From Lytechinus pictus (Eukaryota), in assembly GCF_037042905.1 (NCBI RefSeq), contig NC_087250.1, forward strand, positions 5,148,001-5,212,000: a stretch of 64,000 nucleotides of DNA, given 5' to 3'. Within the stretch, counting starts at the first letter, position 1. Each line of letters opens with the position of its first letter. Positions 6,080 through 49,100 of this stretch are shown in pieces. A program made the translations under genes and the position numbers. Under the pieces are notes generated by a model that was not told the origin of the DNA, did no database searches, and saw only the letters and a list, made by a program, of their open reading frames with translations.

Positions 6080-6351
6080 CAGTGCACTCATCACAAGCTG
6101 TGCTTTCTGAGTTGCTACCTCCATTGTTTTGTTCAAGTTCATAAAAAGTATTGAAGCTTTATCGTTGGAAATAAATGTACTTCATTAATTCACTATGTGG
6201 ATATTTGACGAACTGCTGGTAGACCAAATGATAGTAGACGAGTTGATAATTGGACGAATTAGCATTGGACCAAATGAAAATAAACCCTATTTACTTTCTA
6301 CTTTCACCCGTTGTTCAAAGAGCTTGCCCTCTGCATTATAATTGTTTTCAG

Positions 6352-6518
6352 GAATCTTCATTGTCGGTGCCAAGCGCACTCCTTTTGGTACCTTTGGTGG
6401 TGTTCTAAAGGATAAGACTGGTACAGACCTTGCTGAAGTGGCGGCCAAGGCGGCGCTAGCATCGGGCAACATCAACCCTGAAATCATAGATACCACTGTC
6501 ATTGGAAATGTGGCACAG
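6352..6518 (+). CDS. ACAA2: Mitochondrial 3-ketoacyl-CoA thiolase, coding exon (GIFIVGAKRTPFG...GNVAQ)
   Basis: Thiolase N-terminal KRTPFG motif; ag/gt boundaries; 167 nt. Confidence 0.95.
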
Positions 6519-6560
6519 GTGAGGACTTAACAAAGGCTAAAAAGACTTAGTGCAACTTGA

Positions 6561-6633
6561 AAAAAGAAAGAAGTAAGAAAGAAAAATGAGAAAGAAAGAA
6601 AGAAAGAAAGAAAAAAAAGAAAGAAAGAAAGGG
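6561..6633. repeat. (GAAA)n microsatellite
   Basis: Direct reading. Confidence 0.9.
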
Positions 6634-6729
6634 AAACCGGGAACATATGTGATCTCATTTTCTAAATATTCAAAATCTATTACAAAATTGTTTAAAAATC
6701 CACAAACGCCATTTTTAATAGTCCTATAT

Positions 6730-7020
6730 TTATCATTGTCTTTATTATATCAATTATAATGTTTTCATCTTTGTCAATATTATAATCAGCAGTAATAATG
6801 TAGGTCGTAATATTATCATAATTTTCATTATTATCACTGTAGGTGTTGCTATCATTGTTGTTGTTGTTGTTGATATTGTTATTATTATTCTTATTATTGT
6901 TATTATTATCATCATCGTTATTATCACTGTAGGTGTTGTTAACATTATTGATGTTGTTGATGTTTTTATTATTATTTTATTATTATTATCATCACTATTG
7001 TTGTTGTTATAATTGCTATT
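6730..7020. repeat. Degenerate (ATT/GTT)n low-complexity tract
   Basis: Direct reading; it explains ORF 6754..6945. Confidence 0.85.
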
Positions 7021-7096
7021 TCAAGATTTGGTGCCACTTGGTAAAATTTCATATCCATGGCTGACTCTGGTAAATTTTTGGGCCATTTGTCACTAT

Positions 7097-7407
7097 GGCC
7101 CGTATTCTGAAGTCGGGTTGAATTTAAACCCAGGTTTAAAGTTGTGGTTTAAGTATGGGAAGCCATAAGTATCAAAATTATTAATAAGTTGTATGTTTCT
7201 TATGTTTACTGCGCTCTTTCCTGATTCATCGATGGTAAAGACAATAATCTGCTTATACTTCCTAGACAATTATGAATGATTTGAGAGCCAAATGAGCTGA
7301 AGTATGATATCTCTACAGGTAGTGATTTATGTAACAATTGGCTATCCATACTTAAACTACAGCTTTAAACCTGAGTTTAAGTTAAACCTGATATCAGAAT
7401 ACGGGCC
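7097..7407. mobile_element. Harbinger-like MITE
   Basis: TIR GGCCCGTATTCTGA; a second copy at 22939-24149; an adjacent empty-site duplicate indicates a 3-bp TSD. Confidence 0.8.
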
Positions 7408-8348
7408 TTTATCTTTAAGCCTTAGATTTCTATACGGCAAGTCCCCATTTTCTCGCGGACACATTTTTATTGTTAATAGAGCATGAAAAGAAAGAAATTT
7501 TTTGGGGGCCATTTGTCACTTTATCTTTAAGCCTTAGATTTCTATACAGTAAGTCCCCATTTTCTCACAGACACATTTTTATTTTTAATAGAGCATGAAA
7601 AGAAAGAAAAAAAAAATGATAAAAGAGGGACACAATTCCCAAGGCTACTAATTGGAGTCTGAGGCAAATCATAAAATAGAGATGAAATATTAAGGTTTAA
7701 TAAAAGAGCATGTTTTTGCAATAATTTTGTTTCATAATGTTGAAAGTACCCATATTTTGTATCATTTGAATGAAGTGAAATATTATTACAATTGATTTCT
7801 TCTGGGAAGTACATTTTTAAAGAAGCAAGGATGTTGGAACAAATATATTAGGGTTTGGGATTTTTTAAGCAGCCATCCCAATATACACACTAAATTGCCA
7901 TGGGAATTCTGTAAGTAGCCAGAATGATAATTTGATTTTCAAACAGTAAAAATTACGAATCTGAATGAGTAATTTCTTCTTCATACAGTCAGAATTTGAC
8001 ATTGGGCCTTTTCACACTTGAATCTTGAATTATCATTCTAATGATGATTGTTATTGTAATCGAGACTTTGATTAGCGTTCGCGATTCTCTAATCATCTTC
8101 TAGTTTGGTTTCACATGTGCTATATATTCGTCATTAGTCTTATTTTTCACTGGAATCATCATTCAAATTACGATTTTTTTTACCGTGTGAAAGGGTGGAT
8201 GTTATGTTAAATTAAATACAAAATAAAATAATTTCTTGGAGTCCTTTTTTGTGGACTATTTGGAAGATTCACTGAGATTGCAGTGTGCACATCTCATGCT
8301 TGAGTGAACCAAAACTTGAAACCTTCTTTTCTCCTTTTTTTTTATTAA

Positions 8349-8901
8349 AGGAAACCAAAACCCAAGAAGAGAAGCAATCTTATTGGAAAGAGTAAAATGA
8401 GAGGAGCAATAAAAAAAAAGTTTCATCAAAATCGGTTATGAAATAAGCAAGTTATGGACATTTAAAAAGTCTTTTTACAAGTACTTTTTATGGGATTTCA
8501 AATTGGCAAACATGCTTCTAAATGCCAAATTTTGTGGACAACTCTCCATTTGTTTTGTACACAAATATTCAGATTTTCCTCATTATCTTTCAAATTGCAT
8601 CTTGCCTCCTGAGCACAACATATGTCATGGGAAAATATAATTCACACCGCATATGTCAAGGTCACGAGATGATGTGAAATATGTTAAATAAAGGGGAACA
8701 TCTGAAAATTTGTGTACAAAACAAATGGAGAGTTGTCCACAAAATCAGCAATTTTGAAGCATTGCCAATTTGAGGATCCCCATAGAAAGTACAACAAGAC
8801 TTTTTATTTCATAACCAATTTTGATGAAACGTTTTTTTAATTGTTCCTCTCATTTTACTCTTTCCAATAAGAGTGCTTCTCTTCTTGGGTTTTGGTTTCC
8901 T
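8349..8901. mobile_element. TTAA-flanked long-TIR MITE (Kolobok-like)
   Basis: TTAA|AGGAAACCAAAACCCAAGAAGAGAAGCA...TTTCCT|TTAA with about 240-bp inverted arms. Confidence 0.85.
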
Positions 8902-9031
8902 TTAAGCTCTCACTGAAGTACTTGTGTTTTATGATTGATCAGTAATGAAAAGTATTGCATCCTGTGATTATCATTGTTATTATTGTTTCAAACAAAAGGC
9001 ACTTATGATGTTTGTTTCCAAGCTCAATAAA

Positions 9032-9386
9032 ACAAAGCTGCCAACCAGTACGTTTTTGGCGTATTTAGTCCTTTTTTTTTTTTTTTTAATTTATTGAGAA
9101 AAATCATCCCTATACAGTATGTCTCTTTAATATGGTTATTGGGTCAATGTAATTTCAGGTAAATTTTTTTTTCAATCATTTTGTTAAAACCAGGGTGAGT
9201 TATGCACATGTTTCAATGTTTTTTTTTCATCTGCAAGAGCAGTGCGCATTTTAGCTGGCATGCAGCTTGAGTGCTGCAATGAGCGCGCACGCCACGCATT
9301 TTATTATGAAATACAGTTTTTATTGGGAAAAAAATGTTTTTTTATCACAGAATACAATTTTTCATTCTCAGAGGTTGGCAGGTCTG
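9032..9386. mobile_element. hAT-like MITE (CAGAGCTGCCAA family), degenerate
   Basis: Internal sequence matches the copy at 23299-23743. Confidence 0.65.
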
Positions 9387-9626
9387 ATAAAATATCCAAA
9401 TTCTTTTTGGGCAAGTTATTGTCGGTTTGGGGTTGGCAGGTCATATTTGTTAGAATCTTTGATCAAGTTGAGAGTTAACCCATTGCCTGCTGAAACCGGG
9501 TTGTCCCTGTACAAAGCCGGAAACTACAGAATCCATTAATGGGATAAAAGTTGTAAAAATCAGAGATAAAAGGAAATGTCAGAAATGTGAATATTCATCG
9601 TTTACCCCTATTTCTCTTTCTACTAG

Positions 9627-9755
9627 ACATCGCCAGATGCTGCTTACACCGCCAGGCACGTTGCACTCCGCTGTGGGGTACCCATGTCGAAGCCCGCCCT
9701 CACTGTTAACAGACTGTGTGGGTCCGGGTTCACTTCGATAGTAACAGCTACGCAG
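9627..9755 (+). CDS. ACAA2: ACAA2 coding exon with catalytic Cys (TSPDAAY...TVNRLCGSGFTSIVTATQ)
   Basis: Thiolase NRLCGSG active-site motif; tag/gtaaat boundaries; 129 nt. Confidence 0.95.
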
Positions 9756-10118
9756 GTAAATGACATACGTACGCCATAGGAGTGCCATTCTCAGAAGAAC
9801 GTAATTCATTTTCCCAATGTTTTGTCTTGTAGTCTGGCAATCTTGCACAGTTTTTTAAACATTTTGTTTGGATACAAACTGGTGGCAATACAGAGAAACA
9901 GTATTTTATGGAAAACTTCTTCCCCAGTATCTAGTCAGTGCTCCTGAAAGTAAGCACAAATATTAATCTTGGGATGAAGAAATACAGGATTTATTTTCTA
10001 AATGTGTTCGAATTTGCAGTACCATTGTAATGCCATAGGGCGGGGGTATAAATCACCTTCAGTGATATTTCTAGTAATGGTAAGTCTAATTATTCATTCT
10101 CATCTTTACTATTTTTAG

Positions 10119-10235
10119 GAGATATTGGCCGGTGATGCCGAGGTCGCTCTGACCGGGGGAACAGAGAATATGAGCATGGCTCCCTACACCCTGAGAGGGG
10201 CAAGGTTTGGCACCAAACTCGGCGAAGATCAGAAG
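10119..10235 (+). CDS. ACAA2: ACAA2 coding exon (EILAGDAEVALTGGTENMSMAPY...RFGTKLGEDQK)
   Basis: GGxExMS thiolase motif; canonical splice sites; 117 nt. Confidence 0.95.
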
Positions 10236-10326
10236 GTATGATACAGGCAAAATAAATATATATTTTTTTGGACTACTTGTCACAACAAATTGCTTAAAAC
10301 CGCAGAATTGGATGTATAAGCTTTAA

Positions 10327-10920
10327 AGGACAAGGCCACCCCAACAAAAAGCTGATTTGAATAGAAAGACAAAAATCAAACAAGCGTAACACTGAAAATT
10401 TCATCAAAATCAGATGTAAAATAAGAAAGTTATAACATTTTAAAGTTTCGCCTATTTTCTCAAAACAGTTATCTGCACATCCTGTTCGGTATGCAAATGA
10501 GGGGACCGATGACATCACCCACTCACCATTTCTTTGTATTTTATTATATGAAATATGAAATATTTTGATTTTCTTGTCATTGTCATGTGAAAAAAAGTTT
10601 CATTCCTCCCTAAACACATGGAATTCCATTAACATTTTGTGGTTCAAGCAAGGGGGTCCTAATTGTCAAATTCGTGAAAATTGAAATATTGTATAATTCA
10701 AACAATGACAAACAAAAGAAATAGTGAGTGAGTGACATCATCAACTCTCTCATTTGCATATCACTGAGTTGAGCATAGAACTGTTTTGTGAAAAATAAGC
10801 GAAACTTTAAAATGTCATAACTTTCTTATTTTACTTCCGATTTTGATGAAGTTTTCAGCGTTATTCATGATTTTTCTCTATTTATTTAAATAAACTTTTT
10901 TTCTGGGGTGGACTTGACCT
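10327..10920. mobile_element. TTAA-flanked MITE (Kolobok-like)
   Basis: TTAA|AGGACAAGGCCACCCCA...TGGGGTGGACTTGACCT|TTAA; inverted AAATTTCATCAAAATC subterminal motifs. Confidence 0.8.
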
Positions 10921-11183
10921 TTAACAATGCAATGAACGAAGAATTTTGGGGGCTCTTTTTAAATTTTTGAGGCTCTTTGATCATTTTGGTCCCCTGCGTA
11001 TTTTTTCCTGGTAGAGTATGTTCATGGTTTGTCATCGTTGATTACTGGGGCCTGTTTTGCAAAGGGTTACAACGATTGTAACTTTGCCATTATGGCAACT
11101 ACCATGGAAAATCTTGATTTTGATTGGCTGCCCTACCATGTTACCATGGTAGTTGCCATTATGGCAAAGTTACCATAGTTTAA

Positions 11184-11888
11184 CCCTAAGAAGACGGGGG
11201 GCTGATTCACACATTTTTCGTGATAAATCCGCCGTGCGAAATTTTTTGACCACGTAGCTCACTGACTTTTTACATTCAAGTCTCGCGCAACTTTTGAGAC
11301 CAAAATTGCGACCCCCGGGTACGCTGTTCCGAAATTACGCAACATTTCGTAAGTGCGTGCAGACCCAAAATTGCTCAAAAACATGAATTTGTGTACAAAT
11401 CCAATGAAAATAGTATTTTTAGTCAAATTCATGAATGTATAATTATTTTCCTTTTACTGATTAAAATAATTTAATTCCATCTTATTTATGGTAAAAATAA
11501 AGTCCCCAAAAATTTCCATTGAAAAAACAATAAAAACAGAAAGTTGAAAAACAGAGAAATACATAAAGAAATTTAGAACACGATGAAATACATTAGAAAA
11601 TAAATGTGATTTTGAAATTTTGATCAGATTCATATAAAGTGTCTGTGTACCAAAAATGGGCATTTTAGGGGCATTATTTAGTTATTATTAGAAAAAACTT
11701 TTGATTTTATGCATAAATTAGCATTATTAATTAGCAATGAGATTTTTCACAGAATTTGATCTTGTAGTTTTGAAGATTAAGCCATGTGTAACGTACGTGC
11801 CATTTTTCGTCGTGATTGCACCATCGACGGCCGAGATCATAAGCGGGGGGGGGGGCTGAATCAGCCCCCAGTCTATTTACATGTAAGG
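11184..11888. mobile_element. TTAA-flanked CCC-terminal MITE (piggyBac-like) nested in a Harbinger-like MITE (~11047-11912)
   Basis: TTAA at 11180-11183 and 11889-11892; inverted GGGGGCTGATTCA ends. Confidence 0.6.
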
Positions 11889-11944
11889 TTAACTCTTCAT
11901 GAACTGAGCCCCGGGTGATTTGACAAATTAATATAGGGTATTGC

Positions 11945-12185
11945 GCACATATCCACATTGTTAGGTGCTCAAGGCGCTCCTATAGTACCCGGCTAAGCTA
12001 AGCGTTCATAGCGCACACAGCTTTTTAAGGAATTACTTCCTACCGGTACCCATTTCCTCACCCGGGTTGAGTGCAGCACATTGTGGATCAGTTTCTTGCC
12101 GAAGGAAATTACGCCATGGCTGGGATTCGAACCCACGACCCTCTGTTTCAAAGTCCAAAAACTAATCCACTGGGCCACAACGCTC
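11945..12185 (-). mobile_element. tRNA-derived SINE
   Basis: On the - strand: A-box-like TGGCCCAGTGG, B-box GGTTCGAATCC and a conserved AAATGGGTACC body; near-identical copy at 37850-38077. Confidence 0.85.
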
Positions 12186-12413
12186 CAATTAGTGTTCTGT
12201 GCAATAGCTGCTGTGTACTCGAATCCATTGTGAGGGCTTTGTGGTCTAATTGTGATAAACATCTGACATTTTCTTCTCGGAAACAATAAACGTATCTTTT
12301 AGAGATGAATCAGTAGTGTATCCAAACACTTGGCTGATGTTGGCGATCAGCATAGGAAATTCATGAGGCAGACGGACGATTTCGCCCTCGTGACAGCCCA
12401 AATCACCCCTTAA

Positions 12414-14884
12414 AGGAGAACTATATTGATTATGAATGTGGTCTTATTATATGTCAATGGAAAGGTAATGATGTGGGGATTATCAGTGGGTCATTCAAAA
12501 ATAACGAAAATAATACATAAGGTGAAAATCGCCGATTAAAAAACGCTCAAAATGCCTCTCCGAAATATGCCTCGCATCGCTCTCTGAATTGACTTGAATT
12601 TGATGACGTCACTTTCTGTACGAGATGCGTGATTGGCTCTCCCACGTGAAGCTCCACTTGCATGCAAAACCTGTTGCGAGGGTACGTTTTCTCCACACTG
12701 TTACTGAATACTTCGATCACGAAATGAAAGAAAACCCAGAATTTCATCTAGATTTTGATTTTTAAATTGATGATTTTGAAGATGAAGAGAATGATGATGA
12801 AATGAACAACAAAGTGACGTAGTTGGAGGTAAATTGGGGGAATTACGCCGATGATGATGAGTCGGACACTTCAACTTGCAACACGATCACATGCCGATTC
12901 GCTACCTAACTCATGCAGCTGCTAAGTGCTAGCTACACCGCGCGGGCCAAATTGAATTCATGAAAATGAATTACCACACTGTCCAGAAAGAGTCTCTTAC
13001 CTCTGTGACTATGAAGAAGGAAAATAATGATAAAACTGTACTTACAAACAAGTGAATGTAATCCGAACCTGAAGGCAACTCAACGAATAGCAGCAGACGA
13101 TATGCACCGACGATAAACTTCATGTGGCTGGGATAGATTGTCACTCGTTCTGTTAGATGTAATTTTTATCTCATTAATTTGACAAAATTACGAAACTCGG
13201 GAATTATTTATCTATATAAAAATATAGTAACATCTCGTATTATTTTTTAAATTACGATAAAACCTTTTAAAAGCTCGTATATGTGATCGTAATCAAAATC
13301 ACAAACATGCCGTATTGCTTGATCGCCTTGGCTGAGAGAGTAGATCTATGCACGTGTTGCACAGCTCTCAATCAAGCTACGCATGTTGGGGATCTTTTAC
13401 ATCTAATTTTAATTTACCTCAACGTTTTCCTTCAAAAAACGTTTTATCGTAATTTAAAAATCCCAGCCACATGAAGTTTATCATAGGTGCATATCGTCTG
13501 CTGCTATTCGTTGAGTTGATTTGCCTTCAGGTTCGGATTACATTCACTTATTTGTAAGTACAGTTTTATCATTATTTTCCTTCTTCATAGTCACAGAAGT
13601 AAGAGACTCTGTCTGGACAGTGTGGTAAGTCATTTTAGTGAATTCAATTTGGCACACGCGGTGTAGCTAGCACTTAGCAGCTGCATGAGTTGGTAGCGAA
13701 TCGGCATGTGATCGTGTTGCAAGTTGAATTGTCACTCGTTCTGTTAGATGTAATTTTTATCTCATTAATTTGACAAAATTACGAAACTCAGGAATTATTT
13801 ATCTATATAAAAATATAGTAACATCTCGTATTATTTTTTAAATTACGATAAAACCTTTTAAAAGCTCGTATATGTGATCGTAATCAAAATCACAAACATG
13901 CCGTATTGCTTGATCGCCTTGGCTGAGAGAGTAGATCTATGCACGTGTTGCACAGCTCTCAATCAAGCTACGCATGTTGGGGATCTTTTACATCTAATTT
14001 TAATTTACCTCAACGTTTTCCTTCAAAAAAACGTTTTATCGTAATTTAAAAATTATACGAGATGTTACTATATTTTTATATAGGTAAATAATTCCCCGAG
14101 TTTCGTAATTTTGTCAATTAATGAGATAAAAATTACATCTAACAGAACGAGTGACAATCTATCCCAGCCACATGAAGTTTATCATAGGTGCATATCGTCT
14201 GCTGCTATTCGTTGAGTTGATTTGCCTTCAGGTTCGGATTACATTCACTTATTTGTAAGTACAGTTTTATCATTATTTTCCTTCTTCATAGTCACAGAAG
14301 TAAGAGACTCTGTCTGGACAGTGTGGTAAGTCATTTTAGTGAATTCAATTTGGCACGCGCGGTGTAGCTAGCACTTAGCAGCTGCATGAGTTGGTAGCGA
14401 ATCGGCATGTGATCGTGTTGCAAGTTGAATTGTCGATCCGACTCCTCATCATCGATTCCCCCAATTTACCCCCAACTACGTCACTTTGTTGTTCACTTCA
14501 TCATCATTCTCTTCATCTTCAAAATCATCAATTTGAAAATCCAAATCTAGATAAAATTCTGGGTTTTCTTTCATTTCGTGATCGAAGTATTCAGTGACAA
14601 TGTGGAGAAAACGTACCCTCGCAACAGGTTTTGCATGCAAGTGGAGCTTCACGTGGGAGAGCCAATCACGCCTCTCGTACAGAAAGTGACGTCATAAAAA
14701 ATCCCCAATTTCGCGGACGTAATTCTGCGTGTTTGAAGCATTCAGAGAGAGAACTTTAAACTATCAATTAACTGAGTTCCATCGGTCTCCATGATAAATG
14801 ATGTACACCATCGTGTTCTCCTTTTTTTCTCCTTTGATTTGATATATGATTCTCCATTTTTACGATTTTCAATATATTTCTCCT
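12414..14884. mobile_element. TTAA-flanked element with a large internal foldback and duplication
   Basis: TTAA|AGGAGAACTATATTGA...TCAATATATTTCTCCT|TTAA; internal inverted arms about 12603-13262 and 14033-14695. Confidence 0.8.
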
Positions 14885-15149
14885 TTAAATCCCCCAAAAT
14901 GTCTGCTTTGGGGCGACCATCCTTTCTAGAGTCGCCCCAAGATCTGTCACAAACAGTATTCAAGATTGTTTAGAAAAGTAGAATTGTAACTATGGCAGAA
15001 TAATGATATTTACTTTCACTGCATACATGTAATTGCGTGTTACCCATAAAAAAGAAACCCTTAAAATAAAAGAAATAGCACCCAAAATCCTGCAATCGCC
15101 CCAATGATGACACTACAATGCCTACAACCGTGCACCTGCCATGTACCTC

Positions 15150-15980
15150 TTTTCATGTACCTCTTTTCATTTTAAGTTTTATTTTTTATTTGTACCACTC
15201 TCCTCTCCCTCCCTCTTTCCTTTGTCTCCTTTTTACTCCTTATTACTATTTTAAATTTATCATTCTTGTCATTGTTGTTATTTAAATTACTTTCTCTTAT
15301 TTTGTAGTCGCTTATATGCTTCAATTTTAAATTTTGTAGATTTCTTGTTTTAAGCTTGTCTCCGTCTCCATGATTGTATATAGCTTTGTTAATTCGGTTT
15401 GAAACTAAGTTTACAGGGACTTGCCTTTTTATACAAGCATTGGTTTTCTTGGCAAGTCTGGGTCTCCTTTTTTCTCAGGACTTATTACTATTTTAAATTT
15501 ATCGTTCTTATCATTCAAATTCAAATTCAAATTCAAATTTATTTATTTCACTTCCATCAAACAAAAACAAATTGTATACCATATATAAACATAAATATTT
15601 GTATCCGTTGCAAACAAAATTAATGATACATATGTTGTGAAAAAAACACTTAGACAATTTCGGCAACACATTGTAGGTTTTAAATATGTATACTAATTTT
15701 TCAATAGAAATTAAATTAAGATGGAAATGGGGGGACCCACTAAAAAGCAATGCTTGTACAATGTGGGCCCCTCAAAAAATAGATAACACAACAAATAACA
15801 AAGTATAAATACAGATAATCAAATGAGAAAAAAATAAATACATTCACTTGATTAATCTTTTATATTTGTATATGAAATGTCATTGAACTGTCTGTATTAT
15901 ATTGAATATGTACTATTACTTTGATTATTTTGTTTATTTTGTTGAACGGAAATAGATAAATCTAAACCTATAATCTAAAT
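15150..15980. mobile_element. Two antiparallel nested LINE 3' UTR/tail remnants
   Basis: Stem-loops at 15418-15458 (+) and 15731-15772 (-); - strand AATAAA followed by a (TTTGAA)n tail at 15512-15548. Confidence 0.55.
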
Positions 15981-16274
15981 GTAGAAAAAAGATAGCACCT
16001 AAAGATAATTTTTTTTTCCTACCCTGAATGTGATACATTGTGTTCCTGGTTGTATGTGTACATGTATATTCTTTACCACTGTGTATTGCATATCATGGAA
16101 GTGAGTAGGAAAGTTGCTGGTTGTTTTCTTGTTGAAACAATTAATATAATAAGTTTTTATATCTTGCGGTGCAAGTATGCTACCGGATGGTATTCAGTCT
16201 CTTCTTGTTTTATAAAGTGGCATTGGCAAAATTAATGGCATGTATCTTTTTTCTTTTTCCTTCATACATTTTAA

Positions 16275-16671
16275 AGATAAATGCCAGTTGTGGTAACGAT
16301 CTCAAGATGATTTTTTACAGAATCCAATATAATGACCACCCAAGTGTCTGTTTGTATGAATAAAAAATTTGTGCCAAAGGATTCTGGAAGAAATTGTGTG
16401 ATTGCTGAGAAATAAGCAAAAGAAGCACGGATTCGGGCACTTCCGTCGGGTCTTTATTCCAGCGATAATAATATACACTGTCCCACGTGTGCCTATCTGT
16501 GTTGGCGATCTTCAGTGTGATCGTTTTTCAGCTTAGATTTTATGATTTCACAAAGTTCAGTTTATGTAACTGTACCAGATCTAGATCCACGATGATATAG
16601 TAATACTTAACCTTGGTTTTACAGACTTTCTCACAAAATCAGTGTTTTGCTGCAACAACTTTCATTTAGCT
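16275..16671. mobile_element. TTAA-flanked MITE (Kolobok-like)
   Basis: TTAA|AGATAAATGCCAGTTGT...ACAACTTTCATTTAGCT|TTAA; a related partial copy starts near 16926. Confidence 0.6.
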
Positions 16672-17199
16672 TTAATGATTAAACAAATGCATGAAGAGCC
16701 AATTTCAAATCACTACTTATCTTCTTATCAACTTCAAGTATTATCAAGCATACAAATTCAAAGTTCAATTGATTTGTTATTTTAACCAACCCTCATTAGT
16801 ATGCATTGAAACGTTCCAAAGCCAAGTGTGTGATAATATTTGCTGGTACAATGTAGCTGCATACCTATACAAAGTTCTTGAAAAATTTTGCATTCACGTG
16901 GTTTGCGTATGAATATTCACATCATTAAGATAAATTTCAGTTGCGGTATTCCAATCTCAAAATGATTGTGAACAGAATCTCATTAAAAAAAATTGTGCAA
17001 AATGAACTGGAAGTACATGTAAATGTGTAATTGCTGAGAAATGAGCAAAAGAACTGTTTTCACAAACTATTGCTATTGAAAATTCACTAACTTTGTTAAT
17101 AGTTATCTGATTTTGATGAAATTTTCAGCATTTTGCTGGGTGAAGTTTATTATATTTCATATTTGAGTATCATTATTTTCAGCCCAGCATAGCCCTTTA

Positions 17200-18355
17200 G
17201 GATATCTTTTGAGATTTTTCACTTTATTTTTTTCTTTAATTAGCATGAGGACACTATATAGGCAAGCATCGCTGACACACGCTTCTAGAATGTAGATATC
17301 TGTTCAGAATATTTCTCCCTATATTTTCATTTGATTTGTTGAGGACATCCTAATGGCAACCCACACTAATGCACAGAGTAAGACGCCCATGGGTTTGAAA
17401 GATATCTGTTGATATTTCTTCCTAATTTATATGTTTTTTTAATTTGATGAGCTTGAGGACACCCTATGTGCAACCCTCACTGACACACACATCTAGATAC
17501 CTGTAAAGGATATCTGTTGAGAATATTTCTCCCTATTTTTTTCATATTATTTGTTATTAAACATGAGGGCATCCTACATATGGGCAACCCACACCGGCGC
17601 ACACATTAAGACGCCTATGGGTTTAACAGATATCTGTTGAGGTTTCTTCCTAATTTATCTTTTTTTTTTATTTGTTTAGCTTAACGGGCTACTATCACTG
17701 ATGCACAAATCAAGACCTCTATGAGTATAAGGATATCTGTTGAGATTTTTCCTCTTAATTTTCTTTTTCTTTGTTTACATGTAGCTTGAGGATACCCTAT
17801 GGCAACCCTCACTGATGTATTCATCAATATGCCTATGGGAATAAAAAAGTTTTCTCTTATTTTCTTTTTCCTTGTTTAGCTTGAGGACACCCTATGGCAA
17901 CCCTCACTGATGTACATATCAATATGCCCATGGGAATGAAGAATTTTTCTCTTATTTTCTTTTTCCTTGTTTAGCTTGAGGACACCCTATGGCAACCCTC
18001 ACTGATGTACATATCAATATGCCTATGGGAATAAAGAATTTTTCTCTTATTTTCTTTTTCCTTGTTTAGCTTGAGGACACCCTATGGCAACCCTCACTGA
18101 CGCACACATCAATATGCCTATGGGAATAAAACAGTTTTCTCTTATTTTCTTTTTCCTTGTTTAGCTTGAAGATACCCTATAGGAACCCTCACTGACGCAC
18201 ACATCAATATGCCTATGGGAATAAAACAGTTTTCTCTTATTTTCTTTTTCCTTGTTTAGTTTGAAGATACCCTATAGGAACCCTCACTGATGTACACATC
18301 AATATGCCTATGGGAATAAAGAAGTTTTCTCTTATTTTCTTTTTTCTTTGTATAG
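17200..18355 (+). repeat. Tandem array of 11 degenerate copies of an ACAA2 3' splice site plus the first ~60 nt of the following exon
   Basis: Unit = polypyrimidine tract + AG + CTTGAGGA(C/T)ACCCTATGG..CCCTCACTGA..CATCAA..GCCTATGGG. Exon-like starts near 17244, 17338, 17452, 17562, 17680, then at 17785, 17880, 17975, 18070, 18165 and 18260. The true exon starts at 18356. Confidence 0.95.
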
Positions 18356-18503
18356 CTTGAGGATACCCTATGGGCGACCCTCACTGACGCACACATCAAG
18401 ACGCCCATGGGCATCACGGCAGAAACACTTGGAGCCAAGTATGAGGTCACGAGAGAAGATTGCGACGAGTTTGCTTTACTTGGCCAACAGAGGTGGGCTG
18501 AAG
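18356..18503 (+). CDS. ACAA2: ACAA2 coding exon (LEDTLWATLTDAHIKTPMGITAE...QQRWAE)
   Basis: Thiolase MGxTAE motif; tag/gtagga boundaries; 148 nt. Confidence 0.95.
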
Positions 18504-19836
18504 GTAGGAAGTATTACAGTTTCCTGTAGGCTTTTCTTTTGTTTCATTTGATTTAATTGTGTTTTTCTGCTTTTTTGTTTTTGTTTCTTGCAGGGGTGTT
18601 CTTGTCTTTTTTTTGTTTTACATTGCTGTAACTTGTTATTGAAAATTTGGACAATGATTTGTTTTCAGCTGACACTGTATGGAAACAAGTATAATCTTTA
18701 CGTGGAGTATAAAATGACGAGATACACCATTATGGACTTAAACTACATACCCCAACCCCCCCCCCCCCAAAAAAAAAGAAAGAAAGAAGAGGAACGCCCG
18801 CAGCAAGTGATATTTGATATTACTGTCTTTATTCAGTCTCCATTTGCTCACGTACAAAAAGTAGGCATTGTACAATTACTTATAACACACGGTCGATGAG
18901 AGACAACGCATAGTTTGCTTTCCCTTTCATAGCCAGTTGGTAATTGTAATGGTATCGATTTGATTTGATTTATTTTTTCTTCTGCAGTCATAACAATGGT
19001 ATACAATACAATTTTCATTACGTAACAAGCATAATATATCAGTAATTGATTTTGGTATTAATCATAAAGAAACAAATACAAAATAAAAAAGTCATTCTAA
19101 ACAAATATGATCTACTACCAACAAAGAAAATTGGCCATTTACAGTTTGCAAAAGGATTGCTTGAAAAAAAATGACAACCCCGGAAATGGAAATGGTTTAT
19201 TGAAAATTCATTTGCAGCAAAAGCCTGAATTGCAGAATATTTTACCCCCCCCAAAAAAAATCAATGAGTTATCATTGAAGTTGGTCTATTTTACAAGACT
19301 ACACTGTTCAGAATGTTGCATTATGGGTTAGAAAGCTGGCCAGATTGGAGATGTTGAGAACTTGAGGTGGGGCTATTACGACTGCTGGTCAGTGTGCCCT
19401 TCAAATCTAAATATATATATTGGGCGATTCCGTACGTGTCGTACAGGACATTTCGACAACAATATCTAGTCTCTGCTGATTGCTTGAGCAATAACAATTT
19501 ATTTCTTGTCAATAATAAAATTATAGTTATCTATAGTAGTAATAGTAGTCTTGTGAAAAACTGTTTGATTATGGGTAAATTACAGGTGAAAATAGTGTGT
19601 GTTGTACGGGACTCAGAAATGTCCCGTACGACACGCTACATTTTCACCTCTAATTCACCCATGGACAACATATTTTTGTTGGTTGACATTTTTTTACATG
19701 ACTACCCAGTAGTGAGTAGTACTATTATTATTACCACAAAATACATTGAAGTTTGTTTGGACAGTAGGTTGAAAAATATTGTGAAAATGGCTGATTTTTC
19801 TGGCATGGAATCGCCCTATTATGTCTTCTTTTTCAG

Positions 19837-20009
19837 CCAATAAGGCAGGGATCTTTGACGCTGAATTGGCACCCATCGAGCTCGCCACCAAGAAAGGACC
19901 AAAATCGGTGACCACCGACGAACACCCTCGCGAGACCACCATGGCTCAGCTCGCAAAGTTACCGCCGGTTTTCAAGAAGAACGGTCTGGTCTCGGCAGGG
20001 AATGCCTCG
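19837..20009 (+). CDS. ACAA2: ACAA2 coding exon (ANKAGIFDAE...DEHPR...LPPVFKKNGLVSAGNAS)
   Basis: DEHPR and AGNAS motifs; cag/gtaagt boundaries; 173 nt. Confidence 0.95.
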
Positions 20010-22032
20010 GTAAGTACACTTGGAATATGTATGTTCAGAGTATTTCTTCACTTCTCAAATTTGATCAGCATTTCCGGGGCCAGTAAGATAAAGCTTAGCA
20101 ATGATTGTAGAGCATTTTTCTACAATTGATTGTGAATTAAATTGTAAAAGTCAAGCGTACGATCAATCACTAACCTTTGTGTCAATACGGGGCCCATGTT
20201 GTAAGAGAAAAGCTTTCAACTATGTTGAGAGCATTCCTATGTAGAAAAAGATGTAATCTTAGCTCTGATATCCAATCAGGCAGTAAATATGTATGATAAG
20301 TATTTGAATTGCCTTGTTAATTTTTTGTGCGCTGGACCATGAACCCCTATGTGCTGAATTATTTTCAGGCAGGGAGACAATGGATTGTTTGTTTGAGCGT
20401 CAAATGTAAAGTTTGCGCGTCACCGAGTGTGCATTGGTGCAAAGTATGCAGGGAAAGGGTTAAAGAAAATAAAGACATTGCTGGGAGAGGGCACAAGATA
20501 TGTATTAAGTCAATTATCAAGTTACCACTAAAAAATTATACAAGATTCAATTCTCACTTGTCTAAAAATGGCATGTTAGAGTGATGTTTTGGATGATACT
20601 TAAGTATAATCCACATTATGGACTTAGACGTGCTTATATTATTTCCCTCTTTTTCTGTTTCTACAATGGTAACATGACAGGACAGCTTGTGGCAACATTT
20701 TCTCCCGTGACAATTGCTCCAGGCTTAATTAAGATGTAGGGTCAGGTTTAGGGGAGCAATAGGGTTTTATGTAAGGGTTTAGGGTAGGGTATAGTGTTAA
20801 ACCCGGGCTATTGTCGTGGGAGCAAATGTCATGGAACAGGACAGCTTTCGGCTGTGTAACGCCAAGCTGGCATAAATGAATTATTTACATAATGTTTGAA
20901 ATATTTTACTTCTAAGTTAATATACAAAATAATGAATGTTTATGAATGCAATGGATAGAATACTTCATGAGGTGAAAGATGAAATGATCCAGTCAACAAG
21001 GCGTAGCCGAGTTGAATGGATCATTCATTTCATCTTTCACCGAACAAAGTATTCTGTCCAATGCAGGAAAGAAAAGAACATTCATTATTTGGTTTATATG
21101 ACACCTAAAGATAGATTTTTTTTCATATGCAATATGTGAATTTCGAGGCAAAATATGCTCATGCAGTGCGAGCTCGGTCTGTTGATTATCGCCTACATAC
21201 AACATGCGCGCTGCAAACATGAGTGGTGCCTGCAGTCTGGGTGCGCATGCAATGGACAACATCGTAGGGATCCGAAATTGCACAATGAATGGATCCAATA
21301 TTGCAATGTTTGATAACGTTATTGTAAAATGGTCCGAATGATCGATACCGACCAACCAATCAAATGACAATGGGCTATTCCACGGTTACTCACGTTACAT
21401 TTGGAGACACCTTGACTCATACTTGGAGCTGTAACTCCATTATTATTGATAGGAACTAAACATCTCTTTATCACAACATAGTATGCAGTCTGACTATTCT
21501 TTGTATAAAAACAAAACTTTGGAAATTTCATTATGCTCCTGCAAATCTTTGAAATGTGTCGGTTACTCATGTTACATGATTTGGACATGCATAAAATGAA
21601 AAGTGGACATAAGTGAAAAGTGTCCTCATGCAAGGCTTTTATGAAAGTTGATTATATCCATTTCAAAGAAGTATATTAGGGAGACAAATTTGTATATAAT
21701 TAAAAAAATAAAGAACACATGGTTTTTACTAGGGGTGCAGATAAAGTGGTTACTCACGTTACAGTTCAGATGGGCTATATGTACAAAGACACATTGAGCT
21801 CATGTCCACCAACCTATGGAATTGCCCCAATGATCTATCATATAATCAGTCATAGTGGTTGACCTTAATATAGACATCAGATATTACTATGGAACCTTTT
21901 TGATTAAAGCGAAGACAATGTCTGGGCGGGGATTTGAACTTACAACATCATTATCAAGAGGCCAATCCTCTAACCACTAGACCACACAACTCCATAATTA
22001 CTTCTGTTAAAATCCTTATGTCTGTTCACTAG

Positions 22033-22233
22033 GGTATCTGTGACGGAGCAGGAGCGGTGATCCTAGCCAGCGAGGAAGCAGTTACCAAGCACAACCTCAC
22101 ACCACTAGCCAGGCTAGTCAGTTACAACGTTGCCGGCTGCGACCCTAGCATCATGGGTATAGGACCGGTATATGCCGTAAGGAGTGCCTTGGAGAAAGCC
22201 GGCCTGACGCTCGATGATATGGACCTTGTAGAG
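22033..22233 (+). CDS. ACAA2: ACAA2 coding exon (GICDGAGAVIL...GCDPSIMGIGP...DMDLVE)
   Basis: DGAGA and MGIGP motifs; tag/gtaagt boundaries; 201 nt. Confidence 0.95.
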
Positions 22234-22525: not shown

Positions 22526-22681
<156 letters not shown>

Positions 22682-24245: not shown

Positions 24246-24330
24246 ACGGAGAGGCAATAAATACGGTGTTGGTTCAGCGTGTATCGGTGGCGGACAAGGT
24301 ATCGCTGTCATTCTAGAAAGCCTGCAATAA
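24246..24330 (+). CDS. ACAA2: ACAA2 terminal coding exon (RRGNKYGVGSACIGGGQGIAVILESLQ*)
   Basis: CIGGGQG second catalytic Cys motif; TAA stop at 24328-24330. Confidence 0.95.
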
Positions 24331-27856: not shown

Positions 27857-28150
27857 AGGTAAAAATGGCAGAGGTGAAAATGGCAGAAGTAAAAATGGCA
27901 GAGGTAATAATGGCAGAGGTTAAAATGGCAGAAGTGAAAATGGCAGAGGTAATAATGGCAGAGGTGAAAATGGCAGAAGTAAAAATGGCAGAGGTAATAA
28001 TGGCAGAGGTAAAAATGGCAGAGGTAAAAATGGCAGAGGTAAAAATGGCAGAGGTAATAATGGCAGAGGTAATATTGGCAGAGGTAAAATGGCAGGGGTT
28101 ATAATGGGAGAGGTAAAATGGCAGGGGTTATAATGGGAGAGGTAAAAATG
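27857..28150. repeat. 15-bp minisatellite (AAAATGGCAGAGGTA)n
   Basis: About 15 tandem units, producing the spurious MAEVK-repeat ORF. The flank 28116-28220 is inverted at 29254-29354. Confidence 0.9.
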
Positions 28151-29553
28151 ACAGCTCTAAGTAAAATATGGCCAGTCTTAAACTCCCATGCAATGAATTG
28201 CCAAAAAGCCCCCGCATGTACATACATTAAATAAGAAGTGCATGTCACGGTTAGGCATTTCATCATCATTATGTCTTCATCGGCCTAACAATGCTATTTA
28301 CAAATTCATTGGAGGTGTACCGTGAACGCTTTTAAAAAAGAAATCAAACGACAGATATTTTTTCACTCAATTTATCAGGAGGAAAATGAAACTGCACTAT
28401 TCTCATTCATCATTTTATAACATTCCTTTTTGTCTGGCTGGTTTTTTCATATCTAAAAGTTTTGCCAGGTTTACCGATGCAAAAATGAGGAAGAGTAGAC
28501 ATAAGAGAGGTGGAGAGACAGAGAGGGCAAGGGGGCGGGGAAAAGCATAGAGAACATAGCGGGGAAAGCTTAGACGTTGAAATTATAACGAATGATTGTG
28601 GTTAAATATTATGTCCTTATTTGTAATGTCGTCTGTACTATTCTTTTTAAATAATTGAATGACAATAAGCATGCGTTCCCAGGCTTGGCACTGAATATGT
28701 AACTGATTATGAAAATCAATAATAATCTTGTTTTGACTGGTAAACCAATTTGGGGTCGATCGAGGGAGACCGTCTGGTTCAGATTCTTTGCATAAAAGAA
28801 GACCCTGAAACTTTACCACTGCATCCAATATGATATAAACGCCTCGATGGTCATAACTCTTGGAATCGGAAGTACTGTTGGGTATTTTGTACACCATAAG
28901 CAGCACCCTCTTGGTAATTAGCTTGGTATGCTAAAATGTGGAGATTTGATCTCTGTTATTTTTCAAACAGAAGAAAAAACATTGTTTATTATCTAATTGT
29001 TATTATTTTTGTTGTACTTCTTTTTCTGACCTGAAAGAACTTCATTTAGTTGAAATAATTTTTGGTGTCATTTTCCCCCTTAACCAAATCTCCTTTTTTT
29101 TTCTCGGCTTTTTAACAACCAGCACCCCATTTTTCATTAAATTTTCAAAAGTAAGTGGTGCTCACTCAAGCGGAAATATTTTCGACAGTTATATCGTCAT
29201 TTGCTTAAATGGATCTGTACCAATGTTAACATGTGGAAAAATCTGCAGGATTTTACATGCGGGGGCTTTTTGACAATTCATTGCATGGGGGTTTAAGACC
29301 ATATTTACCTAGAGCTGTCATTTTTACCTCTCCCATTATAACCCCTGCCATTTTGCAAAGACTATCACAAAGAACTGCATGCATAATAGCCACGATTGTG
29401 TAACAGTGACGTTGTAATTGCAAACACACAAGTAAAGTTATAAAACTTATATTTCAAGCCTAGAACTGAGTTATTCAGTCGCGTGAACTATGAAGTGGCA
29501 TGTCTGAGGAATGACTGATTATGATTTGGACTGATTCGAAGCTTAGATGTTAA

Positions 29554-30319: not shown

Positions 30320-31498
30320 TTAGAAATCATGTGGAAATCCGGTTGGCTCAAAGCAAGAACTTAATATATCATCACGGACAGAAGGATGCTCTGCTTCCTG
30401 GTGAAACTTTCGCAGCTTGTCTTCATCATCCAATAATTTCGAGACCAGTTTACACATATATGGTGGATACAGAACAACTGCTTCACCAAGTATTTTTACC
30501 GATCCATGTTTTTTCCATTCGAAGTATGAATTGTATAGGGCATCATTTGAATCTAAAAGATGAATATAATCGACCAATTCCTGGAAGCTTTTGAAATCTT
30601 GTAAATGTATGAACGAGTTTGGTGGCGCTACGCGCTCATAATCTTCCCGCGGTGGACCATACACGATGGGCACGACATCATTCAATAGAGCGTTAGACCA
30701 TAACTTCTCGGTGATGTAGTCCCGGCATTCGCTGCTCTCAAGAGACAGATAAAACTTGTGATTCTTGATTATGTTCGTGCATTCTTTAGAAAATCGATCG
30801 CAAGTCATGTTTCCGCAACGACCATACATGTCGACGCTTACGTGCTTCGCGAGCGTTTTCACAAATTCGTGGCGGCGCCAGGTTGTTCTTCCGCAATTGG
30901 TTGCCGCCCATGCCACCAAGGCACTTTTCTCCTTCGCCCAATTTCGACCTTCACCTGATGATATTTGTGGAAGAGTTTTATTGTAAAGTCCATACGGACT
31001 AAGAATCGTTGCCGTTGGCATATACGACATCGTGTAGTTATATAAACGATCAAGTTTAACTGGTGGCTCTGCATGTTTGGACGTATACCGAGGACTCTCT
31101 AAAGAATAAAACACCCATGCCTGATTCAGTGGGCGTCTCTTCTGCATCTCCGCCCAATCCCGACTCGAACCATGAAAGAACACGATTGCATCACTCTTCG
31201 CCATAGTCTCATAACTTCTGTCAAGAATATAACTAAGCCCACATTCTAGACCTGGGCATTCTGAATTTTTCGGAGTCCCGGGACTCCTTTTGCCCGCCCA
31301 CACCTGTACCTGACGGTAACAAGATAATCCCTTTTCCGACTGGCCACTTGCATTTCCATACATCGGAGATCTCACCCCATGGACTTCCGAGGAGAAACGG
31401 GCAATTGATCTAGCTGGTCCATCAGTTGACAAACATATTATGATGAGCGCTGCTAAGCAAAATGGTATTATGAGCCTACCATCCTTCCTCTTCATCAT
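30320..31498 (-). CDS. Alpha-1,3-fucosyltransferase (glycosyltransferase family 10), intronless CDS, 392 aa
   Basis: Short basic N-tail plus hydrophobic anchor (type II membrane); WVFYSLESP, VDMYGRC, KFYLSLESSECRDYITEKLWSNAL, VVPIVYGP, PPNSFIH and YNSYFEWK motifs. First ATG is at 31498; the ORF track starts at an upstream TTG. Confidence 0.93.
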   Translation of the reverse strand: MMKRKDGRLIIPFCLAALIIICLSTDGPARSIARFSSEVHGVRSPMYGNASGQSEKGLSCYRQVQVWAGKRSPGTPKNSECPGLECGLSYILDRSYETMAKSDAIVFFHGSSRDWAEMQKRRPLNQAWVFYSLESPRYTSKHAEPPVKLDRLYNYTMSYMPTATILSPYGLYNKTLPQISSGEGRNWAKEKSALVAWAATNCGRTTWRRHEFVKTLAKHVSVDMYGRCGNMTCDRFSKECTNIIKNHKFYLSLESSECRDYITEKLWSNALLNDVVPIVYGPPREDYERVAPPNSFIHLQDFKSFQELVDYIHLLDSNDALYNSYFEWKKHGSVKILGEAVVLYPPYMCKLVSKLLDDEDKLRKFHQEAEHPSVRDDILSSCFEPTGFPHDF

Positions 31499-31873
31499 TA
31501 TTTGATATTTCAAGAGGGACCGTAGCAAATCCGATGCATTGAGAGAGTGATATGAAGTGCAATGCAACTTCTCCAACAATATTCACTCTATCGCATTTCA
31601 CGCCCGATCGAGTACAACGAAGCATAATAAAATTGAATGAATTGCCATACCTTTAGGCCTATTCATGGAGGGTTCACCGTCGACCTGCCTGTGCTTATGC
31701 CTCCGTGTCCCTCCGTGCATGACCTTGGCCATTCGAATACAGAGCGTATAAAAAAACACACTTTGAAAAAAAAATCATAATTTAAACGGACATGTTTCAA
31801 CATCATAAAGCTTTTCCTGATGTATGTATTACTGGTATAGGGGGTACGAGTCTCTTTTTGTAGTTTAATGGCA

Positions 31874-42300: not shown

Positions 42301-42700
42301 AGGATTCTATATTTTGAAGTTCAATATCATGTCTTACTTTGTAATTAAGATCTTTATGTACATAGAGAGCGACACCTCCTCCCTTACCAACTTTTCGATC
42401 TGTATGGAGGAAGTTGTAATTATCAATGTTGTAAATTGGAGGAGACATTGGATGCAACCATGTCTCTGTGAGACCAATAATAGAAAATGGAAATGTGTTT
42501 AATGTGGATAAAAATTCGCAGAAAGTATCAAAGTTTTTTTGCAAGCTTCTTATATTCAAATGCATTAAACTAAAGTAGTCGGGAATATCACTTTGAGCTG
42601 CTTTATGAAAAGCCTTATTAAATTCACTGGCTGTATAATATTTACACTGGGGAGAAAAGGTTTCACCGTTTAATATATCTGCTCTATTGAAAGAGAATAA
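39385..42700 (-). mobile_element. LINE (CR1/L2/Crack group) with APE endonuclease + reverse transcriptase ORF2 and 3' UTR, 5'-truncated
   Basis: APE motifs HLNIRSL, GLTETWL, GGGVALYV, IYRPP, GDFNID, ISDHLP; RT motifs QYGFR, DLSKAFD, GVPQGSILGPLLF, LFADDT, FLGV. The three ORF pieces are in one frame, separated only by stops at 41342-41344 and 40196-40198. Confidence 0.95.
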
Positions 42701-45719: not shown

Positions 45720-46385
45720 GCAACAAATATTTTTTTAAATAGAATAGAATAAAAAAGAAATGTTGTCATATTCCTTAACAGACTTCAGCCAACACTTCAA
45801 TACAATGGAGATCATCAAACAGGCACAATGCTGAAAATATCATATTCGCTTGTAAAAAAAGGTTTACACAGAATTTCTGTTTAAAAAAATTAAAAAATAT
45901 TATGAAATGGAAGACAATAACTATTTGTTTGAATATAATTGAATAAAAAAAGAAATGTTGTCATATTCCTTTACAGACTTCAGCCAACACTTCAATACAA
46001 TGGAGATCATCAAACAGGCACAATGCTGAAAATATATAATTACATCTAGATATGCGAAACTATAGACTGGTATCTAGCCCTTATAATAAATAATATATAC
46101 GGTTCATTTCCATTTGATACCAGCTGAAAACCCCCAATACACAATGATATATTTATACAATATACACAGAGAAAATATATATACATCAAGATATGCAAAT
46201 TATAGACTGGTATCTAGCCCTTATAAGAAATAATTCATACAGTTCATTTCCCTTTGATACCAGCTGAAAAACCCCAATACACAATGATATATTTATACAC
46301 TATACACAGAGAAAATATATAATTACATCAAGATATGCGAAATTATAGACTGGTTTCTATCCCTTATAAGAAATAATTCATCTGA
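45720..46385. repeat. Local tandem duplications (two ~190-bp units, then ~2.5 units of ~142 bp)
   Basis: AAAAAAGAAATGTTGTCATATTCCTT...GCTGAAAATAT occurs twice; AGATATGC..TATAGACTGGT..CCCTTATAA occurs three times. Confidence 0.8.
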
Positions 46386-48653: not shown

Positions 48654-49100
48654 TCACAGTTTTCCAGTTACTCCGGAACCGTCGACATGCAGGACCTTAT
48701 CAAAAGTCTTGGTGAGATCTTCAGCAGAAGGGCGTTTCTTTGGCTCCCGGGTGAAGCAGCTTATGAGGGCGTCCCGTATCATCTGGTTGTCGAGTCTGGA
48801 GACGGTGTCGGGTACGAAATCGTTTCCACACAATCGAGTGATGGTTTGTTTTTCTGAAAACTCTTTACCTTTATCGTCCTCCCACACGTGACGCCCTGTG
48901 AATAGCTCAAGGAACAAGCAGGCCAGAGACCAGATATCTCCCTCGGGTGTGGCTTTGTAATCCTCCTCACAAGATTCCGGAGGGCACCACTTGTTAACCC
49001 CTCCTCGCACACCAGAAGTGATATCTGTTATGGCTGAATGGGTGAGTCCGTGGGCCAATCCTAGATCACAAACGAACGGTTCGTGGTCTGCCTCCCGAAT
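48654..49100 (-). CDS. Protein kinase, terminal exon (subdomains VII-XI)
   Basis: Acceptor ttag|ATT; IREADHEPFVCDLGLA, WCPPE, GDIWSLACLFLELFTGRHVW, CFTREPKKRPSA; stop TGA. Confidence 0.88.
   Translation of the reverse strand: MREADHEPFVCDLGLAHGLTHSAITDITSGVRGGVNKWCPPESCEEDYKATPEGDIWSLACLFLELFTGRHVWEDDKGKEFSEKQTITRLCGNDFVPDTVSRLDNQMIRDALISCFTREPKKRPSAEDLTKTFDKVLHVDGSGVTGKL

Follow-up and report, generated by a model that had tools for sequence, protein, structure and literature searches.

The final ~1.15 kb of intron 4 of a mitochondrial 3-ketoacyl-CoA thiolase gene in the sea urchin Lytechinus pictus is made up of 11 head-to-tail copies (U1 to U11) of the junction between that intron and exon 5. 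The gene (ACAA2-like, of the nine-exon type) lies on the plus strand of the window analyzed here, the whole 64-kb stretch from contig NC_087250.1 (5,148,001 to 5,212,000; assembly GCF_037042905.1), and all positions given below are those of the window. We consider the array to be a neutral or slightly costly mirage minisatellite, that is, a tandemly duplicated intron/exon boundary, whose decoy acceptors would be bypassed by exon definition, and we assign this reading a probability of about 0.75. A neutral array in which exon definition always chooses the last AG had been the fallback of the initial annotation of this DNA; we take it as the best explanation, and the annotated protein uses the last AG. 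The regulatory tuning of thiolase output which that annotation had also suggested is unsupported by anything found here.

Organization of the Array

The part of the array next to the exon was detected by Tandem Repeats Finder (TRF) at 17782-18411 with a period of 95, 6.6 copies and 92% matches, and its score of 997 was the highest of the 10 rows returned for the window. The proximal exon-like starts are at 17785, 17880, 17975, 18070, 18165 and 18260, and the final step, from 18260 to the real exon start at 18356, is 96 nt, with one extra T. Each of the five young units (U7 to U11) joins 30 nt of intron end, consisting of a branch-like CTTAT, a pyrimidine tract and TAG, to 65 nt of the start of exon 5. 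This 30-nt segment, TTTTCTCTTATTTTCTTTTTCCTTGTTTAG, was found as five exact occurrences within the 64 kb, all of them in the array, and in none of 100 shuffles. The exon-like part of every unit comes from the first 65-67 nt of authentic exon 5, and 10 of the 11 copies were matched at E<1 by tblastn using the thiolase protein as query.

The five old copies (U1 to U5) are contiguous units of 95-120 nt, each laid out as a GATATCTGTTGAG-like linker, a T-rich tract and an exon-5-like part of ~60 nt. Two types, a and b, take turns along this stretch, which gives a 228-nt dimer repeat 84% alike; in the type pairs, U2 and U4 are 80% alike and U3 and U5 are 76% alike. U1 is the most decayed copy and is joined to the array by DNA likeness alone. 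Unit U6 forms the transition: its linker is of the old type and its intron part is longer, yet its exon-like part carries the changes of the young copies. The decoy AG of U6 is at 17783-17784, and an AATAAA is at 17840. The idea that the array is a dispersed mobile element was rejected, as the unit 30-mer is confined to the array and the linker has six close plus-strand matches there against three two-mismatch matches elsewhere in the 64 kb. A search of 16000-19500 against Rfam gave no match at E up to 1, and no notable open reading frame or inverted repeat was found on the minus strand across the array. A purine run in intron 5 (18768-18787, CAAAAAAAAAGAAAGAAAGA) is 80-84% complementary to the pyrimidine tracts of U7 to U11 and of the real acceptor; this is a low-complexity match and probably meaningless.

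Relations among the copies were examined in a MAFFT alignment. Units U7 to U11 are 87-98% alike, with neighbours closest, and are 82-86% alike to the authentic junction, so that the internal units are homogenised and the boundary unit stands apart. U6 is 84-86% alike to U7 to U11 and 78% to the authentic junction, and the distal units are 56-80% alike among themselves. No two copies are identical; the closest pair reaches 98%, most pairs fall at 84-96%, and the distal copies contain insertions and deletions. Nine of the 11 copies retain the AG at the junction position, the exceptions being U2 and U4, which have lost it. Units U6 to U11 have in common two derived changes, a 1-nt deletion and AATATG for AAGACG, while U2, U4 and U5 keep AAGAC like the exon. 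It follows that the young family arose from a copy that was already inactive and not directly from the working exon.

Taken together, the arrangement is that of a polarised minisatellite derived from an intron/exon junction, with young copies next to the exon and old copies further away. This is how the initial annotation had described it, and the copy identities bear this out, as TRF and the start coordinates do for its six proximal copies with a 95-bp period and a final step of 96, the alignment for its 1-nt deletion in proximal copies, and the unit lengths, percent identities and 228-nt dimer for its longer, more decayed distal copies with a linker. Its count of 11 decoy 3' splice sites held in part: there are 11 copies of the junction, and two of them (U2 and U4) lack the AG.

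We propose that the array was born by duplication of the intron 4/exon 5 junction and that slippage or unequal exchange then enlarged it in two successive waves, a mechanism suggested by the homogenised internal units and the excluded boundary unit. The first wave may have amplified a unit of ~105-120 bp into the 228-bp dimer, since decayed, and the second the 95-bp sub-unit made of 30 nt of intron end and 65 nt of exon start. The remainder of exon 5 follows on from the last copy alone; this copy, which encodes a conserved segment of the protein, is kept intact by selection and is the stable 3' anchor, and the other copies drift and have acquired the frameshift and stops. At least four other mini- or microsatellite arrays are present in the window (7407-7609, 27857-28154, 46028-46381 and 58439-58799), and minisatellite turnover is therefore common here. 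The array at 27857-28154, downstream of the thiolase gene, is a 15-nt minisatellite with ~20 copies of AGGTAAAAATGGCAG and a donor-like AG/GTAAAA in each unit; no exon obviously adjoins it.

The Host Gene

Exons were placed by tblastn with Lytechinus thiolase proteins followed by reading of their boundaries (Table 1). Eight exons of 85-201 nt were located; exon 1 was not located in the window by tblastn with these proteins. When exons 2-9 were joined at canonical AG/GT boundaries, the translation was identical at 390 of 390 positions to residues 7-396 of the NCBI L. pictus model P0023 (XP_063956821). This annotated protein, as given by the NCBI gene model, requires the last AG (18355), with exon 5 beginning at 18356. 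Exon 5 by itself matches Pfam PF00108 (Thiolase_N, E=1.3e-09). The Pfam domain, the named homologues and the identity to the L. pictus model identify the host as mitochondrial 3-ketoacyl-CoA thiolase. The donor of exon 4, AAG/GTATGA at 10236, is a 7/9 match to the consensus used below and faces candidate acceptors 7.5-8.1 kb downstream; the donor of exon 5 is AAG/GTAGGA at 18504.

Table 1. Positions of the thiolase exons, intron 4 and the parts of the junction array in the window
Feature	Position	Strand	Basis or remark
Exon (located)	6352-6518	+	tblastn
Exon (located)	9627-9755	+	tblastn
Exon 4	10119-10235	+	tblastn, boundary print, spliced translation
Intron 4	10236-18355	+	ends in the array of junction copies
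Five old decayed copies, U1-U5	17200-17731	+	repeat families, MAFFT, tblastn (U2-U5), linker matches
Transitional unit, U6	17732-17849	+	alignment, stops, signal scan
Five young 95-nt units, U7-U11	17850-18324	+	TRF, exact 30-mer, alignment
Terminal array member: the authentic acceptor of intron 4	18325-18355	+	signal measures, spliced translation
Exon 5, 148 nt, LEDTLWATLTDAHIKTPMGITAE...QQRWAE, Thiolase_N	18356-18503	+	translation, Pfam
Exon (located)	19837-20009	+	tblastn
Exon (located)	22033-22233	+	tblastn
Exon (located)	22526-22680	+	tblastn
Exon (located)	24246-24330	+	tblastn

Duplicate thiolase models were noted in the cluster of P0005. For L. variegatus, as for S. purpuratus, there is a pair of models on one scaffold with 99% identity, and L. 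pictus has two that are 99.7% identical and were taken as two annotation releases. Such duplicates are tandem paralogues or uncollapsed haplotypes; the 64-kb window contains one copy only.

Splice Signals, Stops and Donors

Acceptors were compared by the number of pyrimidines at -23 to -4, the last 3 nt, the distance to the branch-like CTTAT and the length of the AG-free zone. The real acceptor has 17/20 pyrimidines and ends in TAG, with CTTAT 22 nt upstream and an AG-free zone of 29 nt. The U7 to U11 decoys have 18/20 pyrimidines and also end in TAG, with CTTAT 21 nt upstream and AG-free zones of 28-31 nt; U5 has 17/20 pyrimidines and U6 16/20. The other seven acceptors of the thiolase gene have 13-17/20 and end in TAG or CAG.

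Translation in the incoming frame gave a stop in each of the six proximal copies: TAA at codon 20 in the copies starting at 17785, 17975 and 18070, TGA at codon 20 in that at 17880, and TAG at codon 6 in those at 18165 and 18260. Translation of an mRNA spliced to one of these decoys would therefore end after 5 or 19 codons, upstream of a further four exon junctions, and such transcripts would probably be removed by nonsense-mediated decay (NMD) if urchin NMD obeys the exon-junction rule.

Donors were scored as matches to MAG/GTRAGT (maximum 9). No GT in 17200-18360 reached 7/9, while the seven authentic donors of the gene score 7-8; the best donor-like site in the array, AGA/GTAAGA at ~17379, was scored by eye at 6/9. 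The AG of the copies is followed by CTTGAG or TTTGAA and never by GT. Two roles were rejected on these grounds, namely a recursive splice site and a poison cassette exon leading to NMD, for which the stops are present, yet no donor of authentic quality. Here the initial annotation was right that the proximal copies keep an intact, strong tract and AG, that each of them runs into a stop and that none has a convincing 5' donor; its suggestion of recursive-like splicing failed, there being no AG followed by GT and no usable donor.

What follows the AG distinguishes the last member of the array from the decoys. Only downstream of the last AG do the remaining 81-83 nt of exon 5, which are purine-rich, and the donor at 18504 follow, whereas use of a decoy would give an exon of 244-719 nt with internal pyrimidine tracts, as against the 85-201 nt of the exons located in this gene. 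Under exon definition the spliceosome would take the last AG, as the one followed within 148 nt by a purine-rich exon body and a real donor, and decoys would stay silent or, when rarely used, would give a premature stop and then probable NMD.

Weighing of the Explanations

Several observations weigh against a neutral array with silent decoys. On simple measures the decoy signals equal or beat the real acceptor, and silence is therefore not guaranteed by the signals alone; it is this silence, as distinct from the presence of the decoys, that we infer. In addition, none of the 30 acceptor columns varies among U7 to U11 as compared with 13 of the 65 exon-derived columns (Fisher p=0.008, a nominal value which is post hoc, assumes uniform mutability and becomes ~0.015 if G/C sites mutate 2.5 times faster). 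This exact identity could hint at constraint on the decoys. Lastly, an older L. pictus model, P0004 (XP_054757407, 265 aa), starts in the decayed copy U2. Its first residues, MATRTNAQSQ, are identical at 8 of 10 positions to the U2 reading MATHTNAQSK at 17353-17382, and exon 5 then follows. A gene predictor at least has thus used array sequence as an exon; either the array copies misled the predictor or a rare transcript exists.

Sequencing runs were also consulted. Matches were obtained in 24 runs, all in the form of assembled Logan contigs, with a best word share of 0.19 and none of the runs listed as RNA, and contigs of runs X2, X1, X17 and X8 were placed at 85% likeness on 9500-20100. Among the matches listed there were no contig joints to or from the array; the joints are dominated by high-copy repeats of intron 4 and are uninformative on decoy use. 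Contig depth at 17288-17641 was 1.42, 6.46, 0 and 11.4 in X2, X1, X17 and X8, respectively, and at 17996-18349 it was 34, 8.53, 2.03 and 0; no conclusion was drawn from these values. In run X8, a spliced contig, record 32 (985 letters, depth 25.8), matched exon 6 with 0 differences and had 176 letters ahead of it, and the thiolase gene is therefore expressed in the organism of that run. The exon-5 bin of X8 has a depth of 10.8, the value that 25.8 x 148/354 gives, which is what a single contig lying over just the 148 nt of the exon would produce. This arithmetic is suggestive of normal splicing and was not counted as evidence.

Two further observations were made on these contigs. Run X17, guessed to be RNA, had a depth of 128.5 in 17642-17995 (U5 to U8), compared with 0 and 2.03 in the neighbouring bins of the array and 439 in the exon-5 bin; the peak could be due to collapsed repeat units, to pre-mRNA or to use of the first strong decoy. 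Within intron 4, contig depth rose to 1e4-1e6 in all four runs at 10208-12331 and 16226-17287, where joints and loose ends are numerous (17137 and 10869 being examples). Both blocks are high-copy dispersed repeats, and the array starts just past the second.

The alternative that survives best, itself unlikely, is a regulatory attenuator, in which the decoys compete with the real acceptor, the stop leads to degradation and copy number sets thiolase output. It draws on the seven copies U5 to U11 with complete strong acceptor signals, on the NMD-eligible stop to which every proximal copy leads, and on the tract and AG that are identical in five units. The limits on the p value given above count against it. 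Moreover, selection on a pyrimidine tract would permit changes between T and C, and none is present, which points to recency or low mutability of the acceptor segments more than to function. The intron part of U6 is also more diverged from the young units than its exon part, the AG has been lost in U2 and U4, published mirages and the tandem repeat of human F7 (see below) leave splicing undisturbed, and the current annotated protein uses the last AG. A more specific form of the idea, to which we give somewhat less credence still, is a dosage dial that varies with copy number, for which the young part of the array would be kept: its six intact acceptors, each with a stop that overlaps an AATAAA within 19 codons, would send a copy-dependent fraction of the thiolase pre-mRNA to NMD or to premature polyadenylation. 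If this were true, array length would lead to different amounts of the mitochondrial thiolase among individuals, and the identity of the five 30-nt acceptor segments would be a trace of constraint.

It is very improbable that the copies act as small alternative last exons, with intronic polyadenylation giving a truncated, inactive product of 162 aa that escapes NMD. An AATAAA does lie 55 nt past the decoy AG in five of the six proximal units (17840, 18030, 18125, 18220 and 18315), where it overlaps the in-frame TAA, giving a 19-codon tail, and is followed by the T-rich tract of the next unit. Against this, AATAAA is common in the AT-rich intron 4 (8 in 6900 nt of background), and the motif in the array arose once and was then copied. 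When residues 100-163 of P0023 were used to query shorter proteins in a collection of 5.8 billion proteins, no truncated Lytechinus product was found, which is weak evidence; the three matches were all 64-70% identical and from other species.

An equally slight chance is given to an assembly artefact, in which the array or its copy number would result from a mis-assembled repeat or from two haplotypes. Sea urchin genomes are highly heterozygous, which is a point in favour of such an artefact. Another is an old S. purpuratus-like model, P0003, with duplicated pieces of exons 5 and 6 that resemble an assembly duplication. Precedent also exists in amphioxus, where one mirage was aberrantly assembled in the genome draft (Ebner et al., PMC3087553). 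On the other side, no two copies are identical and they show a graded age structure, which mis-assembly does not produce, and the terminus of the array coincides precisely with a functional exon, one that yields the annotated protein. As far as an artefact is concerned, doubt is limited to the exact number of 95-bp units. The model P0003 (UniParc UPI000222987C, 389 aa) was compared with window 6342-20012 and runs through exons 1-6, next an intact partial copy of exon 5 of 30 aa (LEDTLW...GAKYD) and finally exons 5-6 a second time. The repetition stems either from duplication in an old assembly or from a duplicated junction at this exon in another urchin genus.

Least probable of all is that the array is serving as raw material for a new exon or intron, as in the models of Ebner and Rogers: P0004 does begin with its U2-like residues joined to exon 5, and the best donor-like site of the array is at the U2 reading, but that site is below all seven authentic donors, residues 11-13 of P0004 (LLW) are encoded nowhere in 10000-18600, the product would be without the first 130 residues, the NRLCGSG active-site region among them, and the newer L. 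pictus model drops the U2 start.

Neighbouring Features

Three other coding features were observed in the window, all on the minus strand. At 30320-31582 one open frame encodes 420 aa and contains fucosyltransferase family 10 domains (PF00852, E=6.8e-57, and PF17039). A non-LTR (long terminal repeat) retrotransposon occupies 40196-42805, with adjacent frames for endonuclease/exonuclease/phosphatase (PF03372) and reverse transcriptase (PF00078, E=7.3e-39). The open frame at 48654-49100 corresponds to a protein kinase domain (PF00069, E=4.1e-13) over the C-terminal half of that domain and is presumably an exon of a neighbouring gene.

Significance and Comparison with Known Junction Arrays

The structure is not of a new kind. 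Titles and abstracts of literature combining mirage or minisatellite terms with sea urchin gave no echinoderm case, and as far as these searches reach, this is the first echinoderm example. If the array is neutral, mirage junction minisatellites extend from cephalochordates to an echinoderm, which would suggest that mirages are a general by-product of minisatellite turnover in the highly polymorphic genomes of marine invertebrates. It also offers a natural test of how the spliceosome ignores six acceptors as good-looking as the real one. For annotation, junction arrays can mislead gene predictors, the older thiolase model with its start inside a decayed copy being a case in point. If decoy use were both substantial and dependent on copy number, the array would act as a simple heritable control of a beta-oxidation enzyme; none of the findings points there.

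Poison exons, recursive sites and NAGNAG acceptors likewise involve extra acceptors, whose use can give unproductive or alternative transcripts. A donor is required for poison exons and for recursive-splicing exons, whereas the urchin array has none of authentic quality; zero-length recursive sites require AG/GT, and in the array CTTGAG or TTTGAA comes after the AG; NAGNAG sites are spaced by 3 nt and the urchin decoys by 95. Intron gain by the Rogers model (Hellsten et al. 2011, PMC3265369) resembles the urchin case in that local tandem duplication adds splice signals and duplicated material becomes intron. It differs in that no new intron is formed in the urchin, the existing one being lengthened by ~1.15 kb, and in that the duplicated segment spans an existing junction and not an exonic AGGT.

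The closest case with an experimental answer is the 37-bp variable number tandem repeat (VNTR) of intron 7 of human F7, in which 5-9 identical functional donors are present and only the exon-attached one is used (Borensztajn et al. 2006, PMC1557585). In both, the terminal unit of a minisatellite holds the real splice junction and several splice sites compete. The urchin array is the acceptor-side mirror of this arrangement: in F7 a 5' splice site is duplicated and the array runs downstream into the intron, whereas in the urchin a 3' splice site is duplicated and the array runs upstream. Units are identical in F7 and diverged in the urchin, and site choice was shown experimentally for F7 while for the urchin we infer it.

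The best match is with the mirage minisatellites, tandemly duplicated intron/exon boundaries described in lancelets (PMC3087553, PMC3902484). In amphioxus, the globin genes BflGb6 and BflGb9 carry mirages (Ebner et al. 2010, PMC3087553). The units of BflGb6 consist of the 3' end of an intron together with exon 2's 5' portion, measure 150-160 bp and are 81-100% identical, with six units in one haplotype and three in the other; concerted evolution leaves out the boundary copy, and reverse transcription PCR (RT-PCR) suggests that regular splicing is undisturbed (PMC3087553). The same authors cite Canestro et al. 2002 (NAR) for an Adh3 mirage, including somatic instability (PMC3087553). Similar arrays in lancelet Adh, TnC and PGBD5 are treated by Pavelitz et al. 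2013, who also state that they give rise to no aberrant mRNAs (PMC3902484).

As in BflGb6, the urchin unit joins the 3' end of an intron to the beginning of the exon that follows. Like the amphioxus mirages generally, the array runs head to tail with the authentic junction as its terminus, the AG is kept in a good number of units though not in every one, the internal units are homogenised with the boundary unit apart, and units measure roughly 100 bp in order of magnitude. Neutrality for splicing and length polymorphism have been shown for the amphioxus mirages; for the urchin array neutrality is the probable reading. With tandem units that each contain both parts of the junction, an authentic terminal junction and homogenised internal units, the urchin array by these features belongs to the mirage class. 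It differs from its amphioxus counterparts in that its host is an echinoderm and not a cephalochordate, that it has 11 copies compared with the 3-6 of BflGb6, and that it comprises two separate generations of units, including an old dimeric higher-order repeat.

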